A stretch of 64,000 nt of DNA, taken from a virus (taxonomy: Duplodnaviria; Caudoviricetes). The position numbers were made by a program, and so were the translations under genes. The DNA lies in IMG/VR virus record IMGVR_UViG_3300020213_000034, positions 611 through 64,610 of that record; one strand, written 5' to 3'. Shown one piece after another: positions 5,768 to 15,638 of this stretch; position 1 is the first letter of the stretch, and every line of letters begins with the position of its first letter. The notes beneath the pieces are model-generated. The model was given only the letters and a program-made list of their open reading frames with translations, did not search any database and had not been told where the DNA came from.

Positions 5768-6346
5768 TTAAGGTTTGCAGCTGACTCCGGGGGCAGACCC
5801 GCGGCGTTCGCACTCTTCCTGAAGCAGAGCCAGACTGCGCCACGCAAGGGACCGCAGGTGCTCGAGTCTGTCTGGGGTGGAGGTGTTGCCAGCATCGATC
5901 AGGTGCCGCACGATGCAGTCGGCGTGATCGGGGCTTTTCCAGCGGGCCCAGTGCGGGCCTTTCACGTTACCCGGGGTGTGCTTCTGGTCCGATGTGAGCG
6001 AGTGGCGGGCGACCTCAAAAAGGGCAGCCGGGAAGTATCCAAGAAGACCCCGAAACATGGGGGCGGTCTTGCGCTCGTCGCTGTCCTGAGGAATAAAGTA
6101 TTTCTGTTCCGAAGACTGCAAGCATTCAGTTGTGTTCGGCTGGCTAATTCCGCCTTGCTGGGGGCAGGGGATTTTGCGATAAACCCTCCATCGCCCCTCC
6201 CCCTCCTCCATTCTCCCCACTGTGCGGCCAACACCCCAGCTAACAAACGCCTCGGGTATTCCGTCGCAGACATAAATGTCCCCTAGTGCACAAAGCACGT
6301 CAGGTTCAAGATGCTGGTATCCGCCGATGTGGGATGGTAGGTTCAT
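5768..6346 (-). CDS. dATP/dGTP diphosphohydrolase-like (DUF5664-type) protein
   Basis: RK..P.FRGLLGYFPAAL.EVA..S...DQKH.PG...HWAR.KS.DHADCI.RHL.D...HL..LAWR.LA.LQ. Confidence 0.7.
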   Translation of the reverse strand: MNLPSHIGGYQHLEPDVLCALGDIYVCDGIPEAFVSWGVGRTVGRMEEGEGRWRVYRKIPCPQQGGISQPNTTECLQSSEQKYFIPQDSDERKTAPMFRGLLGYFPAALFEVARHSLTSDQKHTPGNVKGPHWARWKSPDHADCIVRHLIDAGNTSTPDRLEHLRSLAWRSLALLQEECERRGSAPGVSCKP

Positions 6347-6582
6347 AGTGAAAGAATGTTCTCCATGTAGATTCCACGAGCCCCAGTGATTTTGTGCTCC
6401 ATCAGGGTATATTCGGTGGAAACCGGCATGCCGCCAAATAGGATCGCTTGCTTGAACTCGCGCCAAACTGTTTCGTGATTGAATCCGGCTATCCGGCGAA
6501 TCGGTTTGCAAATTGTTTCTACGCAAACTGGCTTGGATTGAACTGGCGTCATCTGCCGAGACCGTGCGGGTATATTTTTCAT
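6343..6582 (-). CDS. hypothetical protein
   Basis: 79-aa ORF coupled to the next gene. Confidence 0.55.
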   Translation of the reverse strand: MKNIPARSRQMTPVQSKPVCVETICKPIRRIAGFNHETVWREFKQAILFGGMPVSTEYTLMEHKITGARGIYMENILSL

Positions 6583-6613
6583 AGGTCAAAACTTTAGTGT
6601 TGCCACGGTCTTC

Positions 6614-10328: not shown

Positions 10329-10331
10329 TCT

Positions 10332-10406
10332 GCCTCAGTGATGTAGAAGTCAACATACGACCTTGCCAAGGTTGATACCAGAGTGCGAATCTCTGCTGGG
10401 GCACCA
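10332..10406 (+). tRNA. tRNA-Gly(GCC)
   Basis: cloverleaf; anticodon loop TTGCCAA; encoded CCA. Confidence 0.9.
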
Positions 10407-10411
10407 ATTTT

Positions 10412-10538
10412 CTGAAGACGACGGACGAGGCTTTGGCCCGGCGAAAATCCGGGATGGGTAGCGAGCGGTCGTTTTCAGGTGTCCGATGGTAGCGCGGGTC
10501 ACTTGGCTTGCCACTGTGTCAGCGCGAGAGTAGGACCT
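10412..10538 (+). ncRNA. unknown structured RNA
   Basis: CTGAAGACGAC/GTCGTTTTCAG stem enclosing a T-arm-like CCCGG-CGAAAAT-CCGGG, followed by a second paired domain. Confidence 0.4.
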
Positions 10539-10539
10539 C

Positions 10540-10628
10540 GGGTCGATTCCGATAGCAGCGAATCGTTTGGCCTTTTAAGCCAACTGGAGAAATCCACGTC
10601 GGGGGTGCAAGTCCCTCTCGGCCCACCA
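10540..10628 (+). tRNA. tRNA-Lys(TTT) with long variable arm
   Basis: TTGGC-CTTTTAA-GCCAA; variable stem TGGA-GAAA-TCCA; CCA. Confidence 0.88.
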
Positions 10629-10634
10629 ATTTAT

Positions 10635-10709
10635 GGCGGTTTAGCCAAGCAGTAAGGCAGTGGCTTGCAAACCCACTATACGTCAGTGCAATTCTGACAA
10701 CCGCCTCCA
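10635..10709 (+). tRNA. tRNA-Cys(GCA)
   Basis: loop TTGCAAA; U73; CCA. Confidence 0.9.
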
Positions 10710-10713
10710 AACT

Positions 10714-10783
10714 AGGAAGAAATGCCGGCTCGAATCCGGCGCGGTCCTACGGACCGACTCGTCTAAGCGACAAGGCGCTTCCT
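10714..10783 (+). ncRNA. circularly permuted tRNA-like RNA (YrlA/Y-RNA-like topology)
   Basis: AGGAAG, AAAT, T-arm GCCGG-CTCGAAT-CCGGC, closed acceptor hairpin CGGTCC-TAC-GGACCG, D-arm GTCT-AAGCGACA-AGGC, CTTCCT. Confidence 0.65.
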
Positions 10784-10789
10784 CTCTTT

Positions 10790-10865
10790 AGGCCGAAAGC
10801 ATTGTTAGTAATGCACCTCCCTTGCACGGAGATTTCTGCGGGTGCAACTCCCGCTCGGTCCACCA
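10790..10865 (+). tRNA. tRNA-Ala(TGC)
   Basis: loop CTTGCAC; G3-U70; CCA. Confidence 0.9.
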
Positions 10866-10871
10866 ATTTAT

Positions 10872-10929
10872 GTTCCGGCCCACCTGACTTGTGGGCTTAA
10901 ATGATGTAGTCGTAAAACTAGGAACTCCA
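10872..10929 (+). ncRNA. small three-way-junction RNA ending in CCA
   Basis: GTTCC/GGAAC stem plus TCCA; GGCCCAC/GTGGGCT and TAGT/ACTA hairpins. Confidence 0.4.
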
Positions 10930-10930
10930 T

Positions 10931-11006
10931 GCATCGGTAATTCAGTGGCCAGAATGTCTGCCTTCCAAGCAGAACGTCGTGGGTTCGACTCCCACCCGGT
11001 GCTCCA
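10931..11006 (+). tRNA. tRNA-Gly(TCC)
   Basis: canonical cloverleaf; loop CTTCCAA; U73; CCA. Confidence 0.93.
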
Positions 11007-11012
11007 TTTCAT

Positions 11013-11097
11013 CCAGCAGTGCCAGAGCAGCAATTGGAGGTGGCTGTAAACCATCTGCCTTCGGGCTACGGAGGTGCAAGTCCTTCCTGCTGGACCA
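11013..11097 (+). tRNA. tRNA-Tyr(GTA), C1-G72, long variable arm
   Basis: CCAGCAG/CTGCTGG acceptor; loop CTGTAAA. Confidence 0.9.
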
Positions 11098-11104
11098 ATT
11101 TCAT

Positions 11105-11179
11105 GGGGGATTAGCTTAAATAGTAGAGCGCGTGCCTGATTAGCGCGTGGCGGTGGAGCGTTACCACCATCCCCTACCA
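11105..11179 (+). tRNA. tRNA-Ile(GAT)
   Basis: loop CTGATTA (U37); T-loop AGCGTTA; CCA. Confidence 0.88.
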
Positions 11180-11185
11180 TTTCAT

Positions 11186-11259
11186 AGGGCCGACAGGTAT
11201 AGTATCGGCAGGCACTCCAAACGCCTAGCGAGTTGGTGCGATTCCAACCGGCCTTGCCA
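11186..11259 (+). tRNA. tRNA-Trp(CCA)
   Basis: loop CTCCAAA; G73; weak D arm; CCA. Confidence 0.82.
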
Positions 11260-11260
11260 T

Positions 11261-11378
11261 TTCAGTATGATAGCAACGATAGCGACAGCGTATGTCGCAT
11301 TGTGGATGATCCTTCTTCCGCAGTGGCGACGTAAGAACTAAGACAACAACAGGGCCGCCGGACGCCGACGCCCTCTAA
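11261..11378 (+). ncRNA. unknown structured spacer RNA
   Basis: long hairpin TATGTCGC-ATTGTGGA/TCCGCAGT-GGCGACGTA plus an AGGGC/GCCCT hairpin. Confidence 0.35.
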
Positions 11379-11383
11379 ATTTC

Positions 11384-11459
11384 GGGACGGTAGCTGATGT
11401 AGTCATAGCGGCGGCCTGAAGAGCCGTTGAAGTTGGTGCAATTCCAACCCGTCCCACCA
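11384..11459 (+). tRNA. tRNA-Phe(GAA)
   Basis: loop CTGAAGA; CCA. Confidence 0.9.
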
Positions 11460-11465
11460 TTTTAT

Positions 11466-11537
11466 TGCCGGGAGATTTGGAATCCTCCAGCCTCATAAGC
11501 TCGGATGAAGTGAGTTCGATTCTCACCCCAGCATCCA
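11466..11537 (+). tRNA. tRNA with CAT anticodon (Met/fMet-like), miniature D arm
   Basis: loop CTCATAA; T arm GTGAG-TTCGATT-CTCAC; CCA. Confidence 0.78.
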
Positions 11538-11543
11538 TTTCAT

Positions 11544-11619
11544 CGGTCCAAAGTGTTACTTGGTCGCACACTCCGTTTGGGGCGGAATAGTCGGGGTTCA
11601 AATCCCCGTGGGCCGACCA
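11544..11619 (+). tRNA. tRNA-Pro(TGG)
   Basis: C1-G72; loop TTTGGGG; CCA. Confidence 0.92.
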
Positions 11620-11642
11620 CCTTCGTCAGCAATATCAACCCA

Positions 11643-11999
11643 ATGCTAGTCATTTTCATTCTCATGAATATCTCCTGCCCCCCGAATTACAAGACGTCCG
11701 TCTCCGCCAGCCCGCGCAATCAGTTCGGGATGCTTGGCGGATATACGCCTCCGCTTCAGTGGAGCGTTGATCCGACGTTTGGCTCGTTTATTGAAGACCC
11801 GGAGCATCCCGGCGACACAACCCTCGGCTTCTTCGTTGCGACAACCGATAATGCAAGGTATGGCCAAACGACCAATTATACGGTCACGGCCCAAACGGTC
11901 AACGGGCCAGTCGTGCAAAGTGGAGGCGTGCAGCTAAGTTTTCCGGAGGCCCCGGCTGACCATATTACGGTGACCGTGGGTCTACCAGTCCCTGCCTAA
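11643..11999 (+). CDS. hypothetical beta-rich (Ig-like?) protein inside the tRNA array
   Basis: ~118-aa ORF filling the gap between two tRNA-Pro genes; alternative start at 11664. Confidence 0.6.
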   Translation: MLVIFILMNISCPPNYKTSVSASPRNQFGMLGGYTPPLQWSVDPTFGSFIEDPEHPGDTTLGFFVATTDNARYGQTTNYTVTAQTVNGPVVQSGGVQLSFPEAPADHITVTVGLPVPA

Positions 12000-12009
12000 T
12001 GGCAGTTTT

Positions 12010-12085
12010 CCAGATGTGGTGCCAAAGGCTGGCGACTCCGCTCGGAACGGAGATTATGCAGGTTCGAGTCCTGTCATCTGGACCA
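12010..12085 (+). tRNA. tRNA-Pro(CGG)
   Basis: loop CTCGGAA; CCA. Confidence 0.9.
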
Positions 12086-12089
12086 TTTC

Positions 12090-12167
12090 AAATCAGCGGT
12101 GAGCCGGCGCGAATCCGGCCTGCACCTCGGCCAAGGTTTTTCGCGGGCTCCGCGAATCCGCTGATTT
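12090..12167 (+). ncRNA. unknown four-way RNA with 5'-proximal T-arm
   Basis: AAATCAGCGG/CCGCTGATTT stem; GCCGG-CGCGAAT-CCGGC; TTCGCGG/CCGCGAA. Confidence 0.5.
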
Positions 12168-12177
12168 TCACTTTCAC

Positions 12178-12251
12178 GGGTTATTGTTGAATGAGTATCT
12201 TGTCCCTCTGTCTAAGGGACGTAGCGAGTGCGAGTCTCGCATAGCCCGCCA
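12178..12251 (+). tRNA. tRNA-Asp(GTC), unpaired D region
   Basis: loop CTGTCTA; G73; CCA. Confidence 0.82.
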
Positions 12252-12255
12252 TTTC

Positions 12256-12331
12256 CCACGATTAGTTCAACGGCTAGAACGGCAGTCCTACACACTGCGC
12301 GCAGAGGGTTCGACTCCTTCATCGTGGACCA
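12256..12331 (+). tRNA. tRNA-Val(TAC)
   Basis: loop CCTACAC (C33); CCA. Confidence 0.88.
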
Positions 12332-12336
12332 TTTAT

Positions 12337-12415
12337 TGCAAGGAAGGCAAATCGGTGAACGCCGGCAGTCTGTTAAACTGTGTCGTAGATGGTTCGACCC
12401 CATCCCTTGCAGCCA
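12337..12415 (+). tRNA. tRNA-Asn(GTT)
   Basis: loop CTGTTAA; G73; CCA. Confidence 0.9.
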
Positions 12416-12419
12416 TTTC

Positions 12420-12495
12420 GGGAGTGTAGCTCAGCAGTCAGAGCATTCGGTTGTTAACCGACAGCGCGCAGGTGCGAATCCTGCCACTCCCTCCA
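12420..12495 (+). tRNA. tRNA with GTT anticodon but U73 (identity uncertain)
   Basis: GGGAGTG/CACTCCC-T-CCA; loop TTGTTAA. Confidence 0.82.
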
Positions 12496-12496
12496 T

Positions 12497-12572
12497 TCTC
12501 GCGTAGCTCAGTAGTTAGAGCGCCTCCTTGACATGGAGTAGGTCGCTGGTGCGATTCCAGCTGCGAGAACCA
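12497..12572 (+). tRNA. tRNA-Val(GAC)
   Basis: loop TTGACAT; CCA. Confidence 0.9.
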
Positions 12573-12577
12573 TTTGA

Positions 12578-12637
12578 GCCCTTGGACAATACCGTGTGCC
12601 GCATCCCGGCAGCTGTGCGACCCAGCAATCCAACGGC
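12578..12637 (+). ncRNA. small structured RNA / degenerate tRNA-like element
   Basis: GCC-TTGGA/TCCAA-GGC stem; TGCCG/CGGCA; T-like GCTG-TGCGACC-CAGC. Confidence 0.4.
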
Positions 12638-12643
12638 GGTTAC

Positions 12644-12718
12644 GGGCCTATAGTGTAACAGTCAGCACACGGAGCTTTGACCTCTTGAGACTAGGTGCAA
12701 ATCCTAGTGGGCCTGCCA
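12644..12718 (+). tRNA. tRNA-Gln(TTG)
   Basis: loop CTTTGAC; G73; CCA. Confidence 0.9.
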
Positions 12719-12725
12719 ATTTCAT

Positions 12726-12800
12726 GCCTCGTTCGTATATCGGCAATTACGCCGCTCTCTGAAAGCGGACAGGGTGGTTCGATTCCATCACGGGGCGCCA
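12726..12800 (+). tRNA. tRNA-Gln(CTG)
   Basis: loop CTCTGAA; G73; CCA. Confidence 0.9.
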
Positions 12801-13022
12801 TTTCAATCGCGGGCATTCGCTGTCTTGTCTATCTGGCGGGATAGAGGAAGTTCGCGTCTGCACAACACGTCGAGGCAGGCTCACGCCGTTACGACCTCAC
12901 GACCGCAGCAAGCCAAACAGAACGAGGGGTGAGTGTTGCTCCTATGACTTCGGGTTGGCGCTCAGACAAATGAATGCCTCCTGCTTCGGCAGAAGACAGA
13001 AACGCGGCTACAGCGATTGAAA
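12801..13022 (+). ncRNA. rnpB: minimal RNase P RNA (catalytic domain intact, specificity domain nearly absent)
   Basis: P1 TTTCAATCGC/GCGATTGAAA; P2 GGGCATTC/GAATGCCT; P3; CR-I GAGGAAGTTCGCGT pairing with CR-V ACAGAAACGCGGCTA (P4 with bulged U); P5; P6; P15 with GGU; CR-IV AGACAAATG; P19 CTGC-TTCG-GCAG. Confidence 0.88.
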
Positions 13023-13029
13023 ACTTTAC

Positions 13030-13104
13030 GGACCACAAGCATTAACAGTGATGCACTAGGCTCTTACCCTTGGGAACACGGCGCAATACCGTGGCGGTCC
13101 ACCA
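13030..13104 (+). tRNA. tRNA-Lys(CTT)
   Basis: loop CTCTTAC; CCA. Confidence 0.9.
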
Positions 13105-13106
13105 AT

Positions 13107-13160
13107 TTCTGCCAGTTGCCGGATACCCAACGCGGTTCCCGGAACCTTCTTCTGGCAGGA
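13107..13160 (+). ncRNA. small structured spacer element
   Basis: TTCTGCCAG/CTGGCAGGA stem enclosing GGTTCC/GGAACC. Confidence 0.35.
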
Positions 13161-13164
13161 TCAT

Positions 13165-13236
13165 GGCCGGCGATTCAGCAATCCACAGACTCTCATAAGG
13201 TCAGTGAATCCGGGGCAGCACCGGAGCCAGCTTCCA
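13165..13236 (+). tRNA. tRNA with CAT anticodon (Met or Ile2), reduced D arm
   Basis: loop CTCATAA; T-loop GGCAGCA; CCA. Confidence 0.75.
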
Positions 13237-13241
13237 ATTTC

Positions 13242-13319
13242 GGTCTAAATGCGGAGATAGTCACCGCGCATCATTGGTAATGATGAATAGGCTGGGTGCG
13301 AATCCCAGTTAGACCTCCA
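13242..13319 (+). tRNA. tRNA-Thr(GGT)
   Basis: loop TTGGTAA; U73; CCA. Confidence 0.9.
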
Positions 13320-13325
13320 GTTTAC

Positions 13326-13409
13326 GGGGATATGGTGGAACGGCAGACACAGTTGCCTTAGAAGCATCCGACGAAAGTCATGGGGGTTCAAATCCCTCTA
13401 TCCCTACCA
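13326..13409 (+). tRNA. tRNA-Leu(TAG)
   Basis: loop CTTAGAA; long variable arm; CCA. Confidence 0.92.
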
Positions 13410-13415
13410 ATTTAT

Positions 13416-13490
13416 GGCCGATTCGACAACCAGCTAAGTCCTCGCCCTTTCAAGGCGAAGTAGTGGGGGCAGCACCCACATCGGCTACCA
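13416..13490 (+). tRNA. tRNA-Glu(TTC)
   Basis: loop CTTTCAA; CCA. Confidence 0.9.
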
Positions 13491-13495
13491 TTTAT

Positions 13496-13570
13496 GGCCT
13501 GTTCGTCTATAAGTCAGGACGGTTGCTTCTCAAGCATCAAAGGCGGGAGCGTTACCCGCACAGGCTACCA
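13496..13570 (+). tRNA. tRNA-Glu(CTC)
   Basis: loop TTCTCAA; CCA. Confidence 0.88.
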
Positions 13571-13571
13571 T

Positions 13572-13805
13572 TTGATTGGAACTACCCAGATGCGCTGGGA
13601 CGTGGCAGCAGGAAGCTGAAGGGGATGCGCAAGCGAGTCGGGTCATGGCTGACAAGGGCGAAACTCCGTTACACTAAGGCACTCCCAGAGATCGTAAGCT
13701 CTGGCTCCGCGCTGCAGGGAAGCATTTTCAAATGAGCGGTCAACCGAATGCCATCCCTCCGCTACACGGGCCTCTCGGCGGGATGCAAAACCCGCTTTCA
13801 ATCAA
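13572..13805 (+). ncRNA. unknown ~235-nt multi-helix RNA
   Basis: terminal stem TTGATTGGAA/TTTCAATCAA; nested GTGGC/GCTAC and GGGGATG/CATCCCT; hairpins CCCAG/CTGGG, CAGC/GCTG, CCAGAG/CTCTGG, GCATT/AATGC, GCGGG/CCCGC. Confidence 0.6.
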
Positions 13806-13808
13806 TCT

Positions 13809-13892
13809 CGGCTTGTGGTGGAACAGCAGACACAGGGCGCTCAAAACGCCCCGCCTAACCGCGTGAGGGTGCGATTCCCTCCTTGCCGACCA
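13809..13892 (+). tRNA. tRNA-Leu(CAA)
   Basis: loop CTCAAAA; long variable arm; CCA. Confidence 0.9.
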
Positions 13893-13899
13893 ATTTCAT

Positions 13900-13990
13900 A
13901 GTCTCGTGTCCCAGCGGACCCGGAGGATTTATACCCCTCAGTGCGCCAGATTAGCGCCGTGACTGGGGGCAGCACCCAGCGGGACTACCA
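13900..13990 (+). tRNA. tRNA-Ile(TAT) with long variable arm
   Basis: GAGGA-TTTATAC-CCCTC; variable stem GCGC/GCGC; AGTCTCG/CGGGACT acceptor; CCA. Confidence 0.8.
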
Positions 13991-13994
13991 TTTC

Positions 13995-14066
13995 GCAGAT
14001 GCCTTCAGCAAGGCAGCGGCTTTCGTAAAGCTGATGAAGTCGGGGCAGCACCGACCTTCTGCTCCA
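13995..14066 (+). tRNA. tRNA-Thr(CGT)
   Basis: loop TTCGTAA; U73; CCA. Confidence 0.8.
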
Positions 14067-14072
14067 TTTCAT

Positions 14073-14146
14073 GTTGGCTTGTATTCAGCAATCCTACCGC
14101 CCTTGTAGCGCGGAAGAAGCCGGGGCAGCACCGGCAGCCAACTCCA
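14073..14146 (+). tRNA. tRNA-Thr(TGT)
   Basis: loop CTTGTAG; U73; CCA. Confidence 0.8.
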
Positions 14147-14152
14147 TTTCAT

Positions 14153-14231
14153 CAGGGGAAGTAGTGTAACGCAGCAAACACTGGAGATTGTGAACCTCCG
14201 ATTGTGGGTGCAAATCCCGCCCCCCTGACCA
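14153..14231 (+). tRNA. tRNA-His(GTG) lacking G-1/C73
   Basis: loop TTGTGAA; acceptor CAGGGG/CCCCTG; A73; CCA. Confidence 0.85.
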
Positions 14232-14235
14232 TTTC

Positions 14236-14310
14236 CCCGTCATAGCTCAAGAGACAGAGCAAGCCCCTGCGAAGGGCGAGATTGCAGTGCGAGTCTGCAT
14301 GATGGGACCA
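14236..14310 (+). tRNA. tRNA-Arg(GCG)
   Basis: loop CTGCGAA; CCA. Confidence 0.88.
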
Positions 14311-14314
14311 TTTC

Positions 14315-14391
14315 GTCTCGTTACATCAATCATATAGACCCGGGCCTTCTAAGCCTTGTGGATGCTGGTGAGAGCCCAGCACGAGACACCA
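14315..14391 (+). tRNA. tRNA-Arg(TCT)
   Basis: loop CTTCTAA; T-loop TGAGAGC; CCA. Confidence 0.85.
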
Positions 14392-14394
14392 ATT

Positions 14395-14464
14395 TGCGGA
14401 TACTTATTGGGGTAGTGCCCAAGCCCAAAGGACGGCACCAAGTCCGAGTAAGGTAATATCCGTG
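14395..14464 (+). ncRNA. long interrupted hairpin RNA
   Basis: GCGGATA/TATCCGT, CTTATT/AGTAAG and GTGCC/GGCAC nested stems. Confidence 0.4.
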
Positions 14465-14474
14465 ATATATTTTT

Positions 14475-14549
14475 GCTCCATTCGTCCAATGTACAGGGCC
14501 TGCGTCTTCGGAACGCATGATGAGGGTTAGATTCCTTCATGGAGCGCCA
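14475..14549 (+). tRNA. tRNA-Arg(TCG)
   Basis: loop CTTCGGA; CCA. Confidence 0.9.
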
Positions 14550-14567
14550 CTTTATAAAAACCATCAC

Positions 14568-14642
14568 TCTCTTGTAGCACAAAGGACAGTGCGGCGGTTT
14601 CCTAAACCGTTGATGCGGGTTCAAGTCCCGCCGAGAGAACCA
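14568..14642 (+). tRNA. tRNA-Arg(CCT)
   Basis: loop TTCCTAA; CCA. Confidence 0.92.
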
Positions 14643-14645
14643 TTT

Positions 14646-14731
14646 GGAGACGCAATCCAGCGGGGCTGGAACGGGCCTTGAAAACCCAGTGACGCGAAAG
14701 CGTTGGGATTCGATTTCTCGCGTCTCCGCCA
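14646..14731 (+). tRNA. tRNA-Ser(TGA), 8/4 fold
   Basis: 8-bp acceptor GGAGACGC/GCGTCTCC; 4-bp T stem; G73. Confidence 0.88.
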
Positions 14732-14735
14732 ATTT

Positions 14736-14823
14736 GGACAGTCAATCATGCAAGGCATGGCTCGCCCTCGAAAAGCGAAGGACGCAGCAATGCGTTGGGG
14801 TGCAACTCCTCGGCTCTCCGCCA
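14736..14823 (+). tRNA. tRNA-Ser(CGA), 8/4 fold
   Basis: GGACAGTC/GGCTCTCC; 6-bp D stem; loop CTCGAAA; G73. Confidence 0.88.
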
Positions 14824-14824
14824 C

Positions 14825-14912
14825 GGAAGGTTAACTGCTCAGGGAGCAGAACGCTCTGGAAAGGCGCTTGTTCGGGAAACCGGATGGGATTCGACTTCTC
14901 AGCCTTCCGCCA
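14825..14912 (+). tRNA. tRNA-Ser(GGA), 8/4 fold
   Basis: GGAAGGTT/AGCCTTCC; D stem CTGCTC/GAGCAG; loop CTGGAAA. Confidence 0.88.
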
Positions 14913-14916
14913 TTCT

Positions 14917-15007
14917 GGAGAGTGAACCAAGGCAGCCTTGGGATTCTTTGCTAAAGAAATCGTTCGGGCTTGACCCGGATTGGGGGCAGCACCTACTCTC
15001 TCCGCCA
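14917..15007 (+). tRNA. tRNA-Ser(GCT), 8/4 fold
   Basis: GGAGAGTG/CTCTCTCC; D stem CCAAGG/CCTTGG; loop TTGCTAA. Confidence 0.88.
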
Positions 15008-15020
15008 CTTCGAAACAAAA

Positions 15021-15638
15021 ATGAACATCAAGAACGTGCTCGGGCTACCCGTGCTTTCGCTCAACAAGAATTGGCAGGCTTACGACGACAGGAAGAACGT
15101 CAGAAGGGCATTCGAGGACATGACGTCCGGCATCGACCTACCAGCATTCTACGGGATGGACATCGAGCTTCACCCTGACGGCACGCTGATCTACGCCAAT
15201 CCGTGCGACATGGATGATTGGGAGCAGCTGGCCGTGCGTCCCGGGGACGACTTCATCTTCACTGGCCGCAGGAACATCCGCGCACCCCGGGTCATCATCA
15301 GCCGCAACTACGACAAGACCTCGGTCAAGCCAATCAAGCTTACCTACTCGGCCATCAAGAAGAGGGACAAGCAGCAGTGCCAATACTGCCGCCAGTTCTT
15401 TCCGCTCGAGGAGCTGAATGTTGACCACGTAACCCCCCGTCACCACGGCGGCGTGGACTCGTGGGATAACCTTGTATGCTCGTGCATCCCGTGCAACAGC
15501 AAGAAGGGGCACAAGCTGAACGAGGAAATCGGCTACGTTCCGCTGAATTCGCCCAAGCAGCCGTTGCCGCTTCCGGAAACATTCATTTCGAACGCCAAGC
15601 ACCCCAGCTGGATTCCGTTCATGGTGGCCGCGAAATAG
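15021..15638 (+). CDS. HNH endonuclease (McrA-like), tRNA-array associated
   Basis: RD...CQYC...LNVDHVTPR..GG.DSWDNLV.SC.PCN.KKG. Confidence 0.9.
   Translation: MNIKNVLGLPVLSLNKNWQAYDDRKNVRRAFEDMTSGIDLPAFYGMDIELHPDGTLIYANPCDMDDWEQLAVRPGDDFIFTGRRNIRAPRVIISRNYDKTSVKPIKLTYSAIKKRDKQQCQYCRQFFPLEELNVDHVTPRHHGGVDSWDNLVCSCIPCNSKKGHKLNEEIGYVPLNSPKQPLPLPETFISNAKHPSWIPFMVAAK

Follow-up and report, generated by a model that had tools for sequence, protein, structure and literature searches.

Window positions 12801 to 13022, in DNA of the uncultured phage analysed here, probably hold the gene of a miniature RNase P RNA from a type-A-derived phage lineage, which would mature the phage's own pre-tRNAs. The phage originates from salt-lake (hypersaline) microbial mat samples, and the window, that is, the whole stretch of DNA analysed, comprises 64,000 nucleotides. 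RNase P RNA is the ribozyme that trims new tRNAs, and its specificity domain reads the T/D elbow of the tRNA. The 222-nt RNA is homologous to type A RNase P RNA, its structure is under selection, its core residues are conserved, and it is placed among tRNA genes. The identity, proposed in an initial annotation as a phage-encoded, type-A-derived RNase P RNA of miniature size in a tRNA array, is borne out by Rfam-positive relatives, a family profile, the helices, the core residues and covariation. From comparison of the sequences, the phage lineage appears to have kept the catalytic domain and to have lost P18 and all but a stub of about 35 nt of the specificity domain.

The ends of the gene were placed by the complementarity of the 10-bp P1 helix (Table 1), and the likeness of a relative on an independent metagenomic contig (X9) starts exactly at 12801. 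The surrounding array comprises some 30 tRNA genes that share the plus-strand orientation, with an encoded CCA in 30/30 and a G at T-loop position 55 in 18/30 of the tRNAs of the window; the downstream neighbor, tRNA-Lys(CTT), was called by ARAGORN at a relaxed threshold only. Array stretches without a called tRNA, several of them long, lie at 11620-12009, 13105-13241, 13571-13808 and 13893-14152. The first bases of the RNA gene, UUUCAA, resemble the usual spacer of the array after CCA. The 64.6-kb record (estimated completeness, 94%) yielded no rnpA gene (PF00825), in agreement with the initial annotation, and no HARP-type PIN_5 protein; because it has no rnpA, a protein partner supplied by the host is plausible. 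No RNA run carrying 12801-13022 was present among the 22 runs listed, and nothing was found in X7 or X8.

Table 1. Features of the candidate RNase P RNA gene and of its flanking tRNA genes, in window coordinates
Feature	Position	Strand	Basis or remark
tRNA-Gln(CTG), encoded CCA	12726..12800	+	directly upstream; RNA gene begins at next base
Whole miniature RNase P RNA gene (candidate), 222 nt, P1 5' strand to P1 3' strand	12801..13022	+	family profile match 12802-13016
P1 5' strand, partner 13013-13022	12801..12810	+	10 bp; family columns paired 8/8
P2 5' strand, partner 12972-12979	12811..12818	+	8 bp including one G-U, read from sequence
P3 hairpin, 10 bp (four G-U), 5-nt loop	12820..12844	+	closing 3 pairs match family columns (3/3)
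CR-I GAGGAAGUUCGCGU	12844..12857	+	P4 5' strand = 12849-12857, U12852 bulged
P5 5' strand, partner 12905-12908	12858..12861	+	4/4 pairs
P6 pseudoknot 5' strand CAACAC, partner 12933-12938 in P17 loop	12863..12868	+	6/6 pairs
Specificity-domain stub, ~35 nt	12869..12903	+	stem 12869-12875/12895-12903 (2-nt bulge) around hairpin 12878-12887
J5/15 CAA, P15 5' strand GCC, L15 5' side AAACA	12909..12919	+	invariant with E. coli A249, G251-A256, A258 (alignment A4)
P16 and P17 with P6-forming loop	12920..12951	+	P16 3/4, P17 4/5 pairs
L15 3' side GGGUU (12952-12956) and P15 3' strand	12952..12959	+	invariant with E. coli G291-U294, G296-G297
CR-IV AGACAAAU (J15/2, equivalent to J18/2)	12964..12971	+	aligned to invariant E. 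coli A328-A330, A333-U335
P2 3' strand, complement of 12811-12818	12972..12979	+	sequence
UUCG-capped hairpin at P19 position, 4 bp and tetraloop	12981..12992	+	read from sequence
CR-V: ACAGAA (12996-13001), then P4 3' strand ACGCGGCU (13002-13009)	12996..13009	+	aligned to invariant E. coli A347-A352, G357, U360
P1 3' strand, partner 12801-12810	13013..13022	+	same 10-bp helix
tRNA-Lys(CTT), encoded CCA, unusual T loop	13030..13104	+	downstream, 7 nt past P1

Counting the pairs on the candidate leaves nearly all of the helices first assigned to it in place. P4, initially drawn as a CR-I/CR-V helix containing a bulged U, closes with 8/8 pairs between 12849-12857 and 13002-13009. Its alignment to Escherichia coli rnpB contains zero indels, and the bulged U12852 is therefore the equivalent of U69; in the alignment of relatives, T52, in the CR-I/P4 5' strand, is invariant. 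P3 is a hairpin as proposed, extending one base further on each side than the 12821-12843 originally given, and its length varies among relatives. P6 is likewise a pseudoknot, one pair longer than the AACAC/GTGTT pairing first described, and its strand in the candidate differs from the CUGCUU, UAGCUC and AAGCAG of relatives, each of which has a matching partner. P16 is weak in the candidate, with one C-C mismatch and 3/4 pairs. P18 is absent, as only 4 nt separate the P15 3' strand from CR-IV, and in place of a specificity domain (P7-P14 with CR-II/CR-III) there are 35 nt beyond P6 between the P5 strands; both reductions had been recognized at the outset, the second at the same coordinates. 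The stub pairs on the family columns at 4/5 positions in its stem and 3/3 in its hairpin.

The P19 helix with a UUCG loop, also named in the initial annotation, is present as a hairpin in the candidate and is not a feature of its relatives: it is absent in 13/13 aligned relatives, and the likeness of the X9 relative ends at 12981, so that the hairpin is not common to that sequence either. This hairpin scores terminator-like on the minus strand, a reading that was set aside, since the genes of the array all run along the plus strand and the hairpin falls within the RNA gene itself.

Rfam in gathering mode revealed no RNase P match in the whole window, nor did Rfam at E<=10 on 12700-13260 (561 bases). 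The RF00010 model run over the whole record gave nothing at the candidate (gathering score, 100 bits), and RF02357 (type T) over the same record gave a sole match of 7.2 bits (E 1.55), located elsewhere. The local Rfam match expected in the initial annotation is thus formally lacking, a negative outcome that is overridden because homology was shown through Rfam-positive relatives. The minimum-energy fold of the candidate was no better than that of shuffled sequences (z = -0.97), as computed by a method that cannot predict pseudoknots. Searches of phage records by blastn gave no match for the candidate and none for one of its relatives (L039), and for another (L040) returned only two records, both of one uncultured 735-kb phage. 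A tblastn search of phages with the neighboring 723-aa protein gave no match, and a protein-anchored search for related phages led to one distant locus (L015) with neither tRNAs nor the element.

Relatives were fished from viral contigs by pattern scans built on the candidate's own motifs. All 13 matches (13/13) of the first DNA pattern were judged on inspection to be chance. A later scan with 57 loci contained 8 real members and 49 chance matches, and one with 20 loci contained 13 real loci and 7 chance matches in coding sequence; the 13 comprise 12 members or duplicates and a divergent form (L089/L092). Five identical or near-identical duplicates (L076, L077, L078, L091 and L092) were left out of the alignments, as was L089, with its CR-V unresolved, and three relatives too long for the seed (L075, L083 and L056) were scored later against the family profile.

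In all seven relative loci searched (7/7), Rfam returned an RNase P match spanning the whole model. L056 exceeds the gathering score of RF00010 with 174.4 bits (E 1.4e-54), and the same model matches L040 with 61.5 bits (E 2.6e-16) and L071 with 42.9 bits (E 5.2e-10). L027 and L039 match RF00373 (E 2e-10 and 3.5e-10, respectively), and L054 and L075 gave RNase P matches with E values of 0.0013 and 0.045. The helices of L040 correspond one to one to those of the Rfam model, with the S-domain and P18 deleted (110 model positions at the specificity domain and 24 at P18). In 4/7 of the loci searched, tRNAs are located on both sides of the RNA.

The family profile is an nhmmer sequence profile of 13 relatives from which the candidate was excluded, and its E values are not structure-aware. 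In the 64-kb window it matches a single place, 12802-13016, with 74.8 bits (E 9.6e-23) over 194/204 profile positions, and on 70 pattern-matched decoy loci (604 kb) it reaches at most 4.5 bits. The score is partly built in because the relatives were found with patterns from the candidate's motifs, a concern that the decoy control and the phage DLP6 described below answer only in part. On the structure derived without the candidate, the candidate forms 47/52 family pairs as aligned and 49/52 with P2 in its true register, the P19 insertion having led MAFFT to misplace the P2 3' strand of the candidate. The fold energy and the start at UUUCAA, like that of a usual post-CCA spacer, might suggest a structured tRNA spacer that resembles RNase P RNA by chance; this has a negligible probability and is already refuted by the profile match, set against the decoy scores, and by the 49/52 pairs.

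The paired state of the family was measured on the alignment without the candidate, in which 84.8% of 658 cells were paired, against 59.8% after shuffling (0/500 shuffles reached the level of the real alignment) and 33 to 42% when slid; with the candidate (14 sequences), 87.0% were paired against 60.3% when shuffled. The covariation of P2, P4 and P6 anticipated for homologues is present, with changes on both sides in 6/6, 6/8 and 5/6 pairs, respectively. All the sequences (14/14) pair P4 completely (100%), although its strands occur in 11 different versions; P2 is 97.4% paired in the relatives, and P6 is 72.6% paired in the family. Pairing of P2, P5 and P16 in the family ranges from 91 to 100%, with P5 (98%, 4/4 pairs covarying) and P16 (98 to 100%) both covarying. 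The stub of the candidate can be aligned to that of the family as a stem and hairpin followed by a GUUAC-like strand.

The X9 relative shows 27 differences over 12801-12981, among which three pairs are compensatory, as follows: 12879/12886 in the stub hairpin changes from G-C to A-U, and in the P16/P17 region 12922/12949 changes from A-U to G-C and 12929/12939 from G-C to A-U. One hairpin loop is changed to UUCG, and P3 is remodelled by substitutions and several 1-nt deletions, which would break any reading frame; a helix appears, in our reading, to remain there.

A copy of 249 nt is present in a cultured phage, Stenotrophomonas phage vB_SmaS-DLP_6 (KU682439.2, positions 105774-106022), which was found without the search patterns. 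It matches RF00010 with 54.7 bits (E 3.3e-17) and the family profile with 94.9 bits, and a search with the candidate alone, over the DLP6 locus together with 607 kb of decoys, matched nothing but the DLP6 RNA (E 8.8e-6). The copy adjoins a tRNA-Arg in a tRNA cluster, with no annotated feature over it, and differs from the candidate by an insertion of about 34 nt at the P18 position and by lacking the hairpin at the P19 position. The short length of the candidate, its failure to match Rfam and its weakened P16 could also mark the remnant of an rnpB captured from a host, decaying and without function. This is very improbable given that each helix shows compensatory changes among the 14 diverged copies and in the close relative, and given the same reduced architecture in many unrelated viral contigs and a cultured phage.

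The catalytic domain of the candidate matches E. coli M1 RNA (rnpB; type A, RF00010) helix for helix through P1-P5, P15-P17 and P6. The bulged U of P4 is in the same register, and CR-I, CR-IV, CR-V, the J5/15 adenines and the GGU of L15 are identical at invariant positions. When six phage RNAs are aligned with E. coli rnpB, 40 columns are invariant, all 40 of them including the candidate; their E. coli equivalents include A249, G291-U294, A328-A330, A333-U335, A347-A352, G357 and U360-A361. In contrast to the 377-nt E. coli RNA, the candidate has no P18, P8-P14 or CR-II, and it is encoded by a phage in a tRNA array.

In type A RNAs the bacterial protein binds the P3, CR-I, CR-IV and CR-V regions, all of which are kept in the candidate, with the specificity domain and P18 gone and Rfam not recognizing the RNA. 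These features would fit a non-catalytic RNase P RNA homologue that serves as a decoy, soaking up host RnpA or pre-tRNA and thereby diverting or slowing the host's tRNA processing in the infected cell, a role discussed for a camelpox RNase P-like RNA in a review (PMC3001073). We regard this as unlikely, since a protein sponge would need no bulged U in P4, no J5/15 adenines, no L15 GGU and no P6, all of which are kept or covarying here. Moreover, activity of the C-domain by itself is established (PMC5839562), and the camelpox RNA reduced pre-tRNA processing in cells by only 20% (PMC3001073).

A catalytic ribozyme is further consistent with the engineered E. coli "CP RPR", which is also a catalytic domain without an S-domain. 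According to the report on it (PMC5839562), the type A C-domain by itself can still cut substrates, though less efficiently, its activity depends on a P6-like contact, and P18 is dispensable once the S-domain is gone; these requirements agree with what the candidate keeps (P6) and has lost (P18 and the S-domain). The engineered RNA is a laboratory deletion of reduced efficiency, whereas the phage RNA is natural, has a true P6, retains a small stub and has been conserved among phages.

In bacteria the GGU of L15 pairs with the 3' CCA of the tRNA. The conservation of this GGU together with the CCA on all the tRNAs points to tRNA substrates. The phage RNA would probably work as follows. It would be transcribed within the co-oriented array, and the cuts that free the neighboring tRNAs would also release it. 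It would fold around the P4 and P6 pseudoknots, join the host RnpA protein and cleave the short U-rich leaders from the phage's CCA-bearing pre-tRNAs. Recognition would involve the acceptor stem, the CCA end (via the L15 GGU) and the -1 base (via J5/15), and not the T/D elbow. Infected cells would thereby have additional, or host-independent, means of separating the polycistronic tRNA transcript into its parts.

The long array stretches without a called tRNA leave room for a ribozyme derived from RNase P that acts mainly on something else, be it non-tRNA elements of the array, phage mRNAs or, in cis, the ends of the array transcript, which it would shape. An S-domain-less enzyme should accept hairpin-like substrates, and the C-domain cleaved a model hairpin-loop substrate (PMC5839562). 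Such a specialization is nevertheless quite unlikely with the L15 GGU kept, CCA encoded on 30/30 tRNAs and the relatives located in plain tRNA arrays.

A U at T-loop position 55 is near-universal in tRNAs, and the initial annotation had taken the RNA for an elbow-independent enzyme made for the non-canonical tRNAs of this phage. This explanation is not supported by the relatives, in which the same miniature RNA accompanies tRNAs with U55 (10/10 in L039, 11/11 in L074 and 5/5 in L082), position 55 being read only in arrays with an encoded CCA, as it is unreliable elsewhere. Reduction of the specificity domain is therefore characteristic of the whole family and not an adaptation to the tRNAs of this phage. 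A broader proposal, which is tentative and which we consider rather doubtful, is that phages have evolved their own elbow-blind lineage of RNase P ribozymes that frees array maturation from the host RNase P RNA. In the present phage it would have co-evolved with the G55 tRNA set (18/30), whose members are perhaps poor substrates of the host enzyme or shielded from host defences directed at tRNAs.

The specificity domain is nearly absent from type T RNase P RNA. This class of the Thermoproteaceae (Pyrobaculum; RF02357) is likewise a natural diminutive RNase P RNA, but it has an archaeal core and archaeal proteins, and the candidate has no sequence relation to RF02357; the reduction is therefore convergent. 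The type T class was also missed by earlier Rfam models, according to PMC3579882.

In the literature searched, the sole precedent found for comparing an RNA encoded by a virus with RNase P RNA was the camelpox RNA (PMC3001073). It belongs to a eukaryotic virus (camelpox/orthopoxvirus) and shows, in the wording of the same source, only "some secondary structure similarity," whereas in the phage RNA the conserved core is complete and the relatives provide significant covariance-model support. The literature searched, which lay outside subscription journals and supplements and included passages of PMC6582537, PMC11143913 and PMC3001073, contained no account of an RNase P RNA in a phage.

Standard RNA annotation misses this family, as Rfam is blind to the candidate and the DLP6 copy is unannotated. 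RNase P RNA is generally viewed as a ribozyme common to all cells. A conserved virus-borne version of half the usual size would constitute a natural minimal RNase P and would reveal the portions of type A RNA that are indispensable in vivo. Because DLP6 is a cultured phage, the function is directly testable. The 5' processing of tRNAs would join the translation-related functions that phages bring along.

The candidate RNase P RNA gene lies in an array of tRNA genes, all in one orientation, that occupies approximately positions 10330 to 14910 of the window (10332 to 14912 in a side entry). The virus record comprises 64.6 kb with an estimated completeness of 94%, nearly all of it covered by the window, and the candidate stretch is present in DNA runs from metagenomes of hypersaline lakes and microbial mats. 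ARAGORN at its default setting retrieved 21 tRNAs and Rfam a further 3; ARAGORN at a relaxed threshold, the sole basis for nine of the genes, reported 30 plus-strand tRNAs, every one with an encoded CCA. The spacers are frequently just 4 to 7 nt long and U-rich, and the long array stretches 11620-12009, 13105-13241, 13571-13808, and 13893-14152 yielded neither tRNA calls nor Rfam matches. Elsewhere in the record, a minus-strand protein (5768-6589) carries the N-terminal domain of a dATP/dGTP diphosphohydrolase (PF18909, E 2.1e-6), a domain associated with phages in which DNA adenine is replaced.

Features around the candidate RNase P RNA gene (window positions)
Feature	Position	Strand	Remark
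tRNA-Gln(CTG)	12726-12800	+	Flanks candidate on 5' side
Candidate RNase P RNA	12801-13022	+	222 nt
tRNA-Lys(CTT)	13030-13104	+	Flanks candidate on 3' side
Terminator-like hairpin	14927-14941		Between array end and HNH endonuclease gene
HNH endonuclease gene	14970-15638	+	PF01844, PF14279; directly 3' of last tRNA

All helices listed in the initial annotation are present in the candidate. P1, a perfect 10-bp stem, joins its two ends, P2 has 8 bp, P3 is a 10-bp hairpin, and P5 has 4 bp. CR-I pairs with CR-V to form an 8-bp P4 with a single bulged U, in exactly the register of Escherichia coli and with no indels; its closing U-A pair is found in no relative. In characterized RNase P RNAs, the U bulged from P4 and adjacent residues bind catalytic metal ions. 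The P6 pseudoknot has 6 bp (CAACAC with GUGUUG), and P16 and P17, the L15 motif GGGUU, CR-IV, a UUCG hairpin at the P19 position, and ACAGAA of CR-V occur in the correct order. The absence of P18 was confirmed, as was the reduction of the specificity (S) domain to 35 nt (12869-12903), where 150 to 200 nt are expected. On the minus strand, the P19-position hairpin (12975-12998) scores as terminator-like, with a 10-bp stem and then a U-rich tail.

Rfam at gathering scores did not recognize the candidate as an RNase P RNA, a search at E<=10 over a 561-base stretch around it gave no RNase P match, and its minimum folding energy does not surpass that of shuffled sequence. The lack of a covariance-model match had been named at the outset as a refutation of this identity, and none was obtained at the candidate when RF00010 and the type T model RF02357 were run on the record. 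The type T RNAs of Thermoproteaceae, described as diminutive RNase P RNAs overlooked by earlier Rfam models, provide a precedent for a small RNase P RNA missed by Rfam (PMC3579882).

Searches for relatives by blastn and by protein anchors yielded nothing useful. Relatives emerged when viral contigs were scanned for three degenerate patterns that set core motifs at the spacing of the miniature RNA; the majority of matches are chance occurrences in coding sequence, and about twenty are clearly the same kind of element. In all seven relatives' loci searched, Rfam placed a whole-model RNase P match at the element: L056 (174.4 bits, E 1.4e-54, exceeding the gathering score), L040 (61.5 bits, E 2.6e-16), L027 (E 2e-10), L039 (E 3.5e-10), L071 (E 5.2e-10), L054 (E 0.0013), and L075 (E 0.045). 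The relatives are thus RNase P RNAs according to Rfam's own models. The L040 alignment has P1 to P5, P15 to P17, CR-I, CR-IV, and CR-V in place, with 110 S-domain and 24 P18 model positions deleted. The 287-nt RNA of L056 (3624-3910) keeps P18 and more of the S-domain and may link the full-size and miniature forms as an intermediate; ARAGORN found no tRNA in the 14.9 kb of that locus. The L040 RNA also has a 72% identical counterpart at 181389-181530 of LR756501.1 and LR756503.1, two unannotated records of one uncultured 735-kb phage.

A profile hidden Markov model made from 13 relatives (alignment A1), with the candidate excluded, has a single significant place in the 64-kb window, at 12802-13016 (74.8 bits, E 9.6e-23; profile positions 4 to 197 of 204), a score that is partly built in because the relatives were retrieved with the candidate's own motifs. 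Two controls were therefore used. Seventy decoy loci (604 kb) holding chance matches to the same patterns scored at most 4.5 bits. The second control, in the cultured Stenotrophomonas phage vB_SmaS-DLP_6 (DLP6), was located not by the patterns but by RF00010 (54.7 bits, E 3.3e-17). This unannotated element (KU682439.2, 105774-106022; L096, 1501-1749) lies between a hypothetical CDS and tRNA-Arg(CCG), just before the latter, and carries an insertion of ~34 nt at the P18 position. It scores 94.9 bits with the 13-relative profile, and it was the sole match (E 8.8e-6) when the candidate alone was compared with it and all decoys.

Pairing was counted on a structure taken from L040 and its Rfam alignment. 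Among the 13 relatives, paired cells make up 84.8% of 658, compared with 59.8% under shuffling; none of 500 shuffles reached the observed value, and sliding the partners by 1 to 3 columns lowered the paired share to 33 to 42%. Both sides change in 44 of the 52 pairs. With the candidate included, 87.0% of cells are paired (60.3% shuffled), and P4 is fully paired in all 14 sequences through 11 different strand sequences. The candidate makes the family-column pairs of P1 (8/8), P3 (3/3), P4 (8/8), P5 (4/4), P6 (6/6), the stub stem (4/5), the stub hairpin (3/3), P16 (3/4), and P17 (4/5); its P2, intact in the actual sequence, was put out of place in the MAFFT alignment by the extra P19-position hairpin. 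As an independent check, a contig from metagenome run X9 shows 27 differences from the candidate over 12801-12981, with three clean compensatory swaps (12879/12886, 12922/12949, and 12929/12939) and one hairpin loop changed to UUCG. Its P3 has several 1-nt deletions plus substitutions, and we read these changes as leaving a helix in place. Small ORFs at this locus are ruled out, since these deletions would break any reading frame. The likeness begins exactly at 12801, straight after a different tRNA-CCA, and stops at 12981, the start of the candidate's private P19-position hairpin.

In an alignment of E. coli rnpB with the candidate and five phage relatives (A4), the cleanly aligned 3' half is invariant at A249, G251-A256, A258, G259, G291-U294, G296-G297, A328-A330, A333-U335, A347-A352, G357, and U360-A361 (E. 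coli numbering). For the short RNAs the MAFFT alignment of the 5' half is wrong, and CR-I is assigned from the P4 register test and the Rfam alignment of L040. In PMC11143913 the 3' end of the tRNA is paired with GGU, and an interaction of A248 with the -1 residue is suggested in PMC10465520. The tRNA arrays beside the miniature RNAs of L040, L071, L050, and L027 mostly lack encoded CCA (present in 1/28, 0/14, and 0/10 tRNAs of the first three), and the L15 GGU is kept in these four ribozymes despite this. It is very likely that the candidate belongs to this phage family and is a real, selectively maintained homologue of the catalytic domain of RNase P RNA. A search of the openly accessible literature, supplementary files excepted, turned up no account of an RNase P RNA encoded by a phage.

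The initial annotation proposed that the phage brings an elbow-independent ribozyme to process its non-canonical tRNAs. The tRNAs are indeed odd, with G in place of U at T-loop position 55 in 18 of the 30 plus-strand genes (T loop U-G-C-R-A); position 54 is A or C in a few (Ile 11105, Glu 13496, and Lys 13030). The explanation itself was not supported, as relatives with the miniature RNA have U55 in all their CCA-bearing tRNAs (L039, 10/10; L074, 11/11; L082, 5/5). It follows that the missing elbow-reading domain characterizes the family and is not a response to the tRNAs of this phage; a secondary fit between the RNA and the G55 tRNAs is conceivable.

The plus strand has no promoter-like site of the candidate's own and tRNAs abut it, so the RNA would most likely be released by cutting from the array transcript. 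The phage record yielded no rnpA, as initially claimed, and no HARP-type protein; any protein partner would therefore be host RnpA. As described in PMC5839562, a type A catalytic domain can cleave substrates on its own at lower efficiency, needs a P6-type contact, and can dispense with P18 once the S-domain is gone. The phage RNA has a real P6 and is missing both P18 and the S-domain, the combination expected from those findings. The candidate probably acts together with a host protein as a ribozyme that processes tRNA 5' ends. Thirty tRNAs with very short spacers would have to be separated mainly at their 5' ends, so added RNase P capacity for array processing would be a reasonable benefit to the phage.
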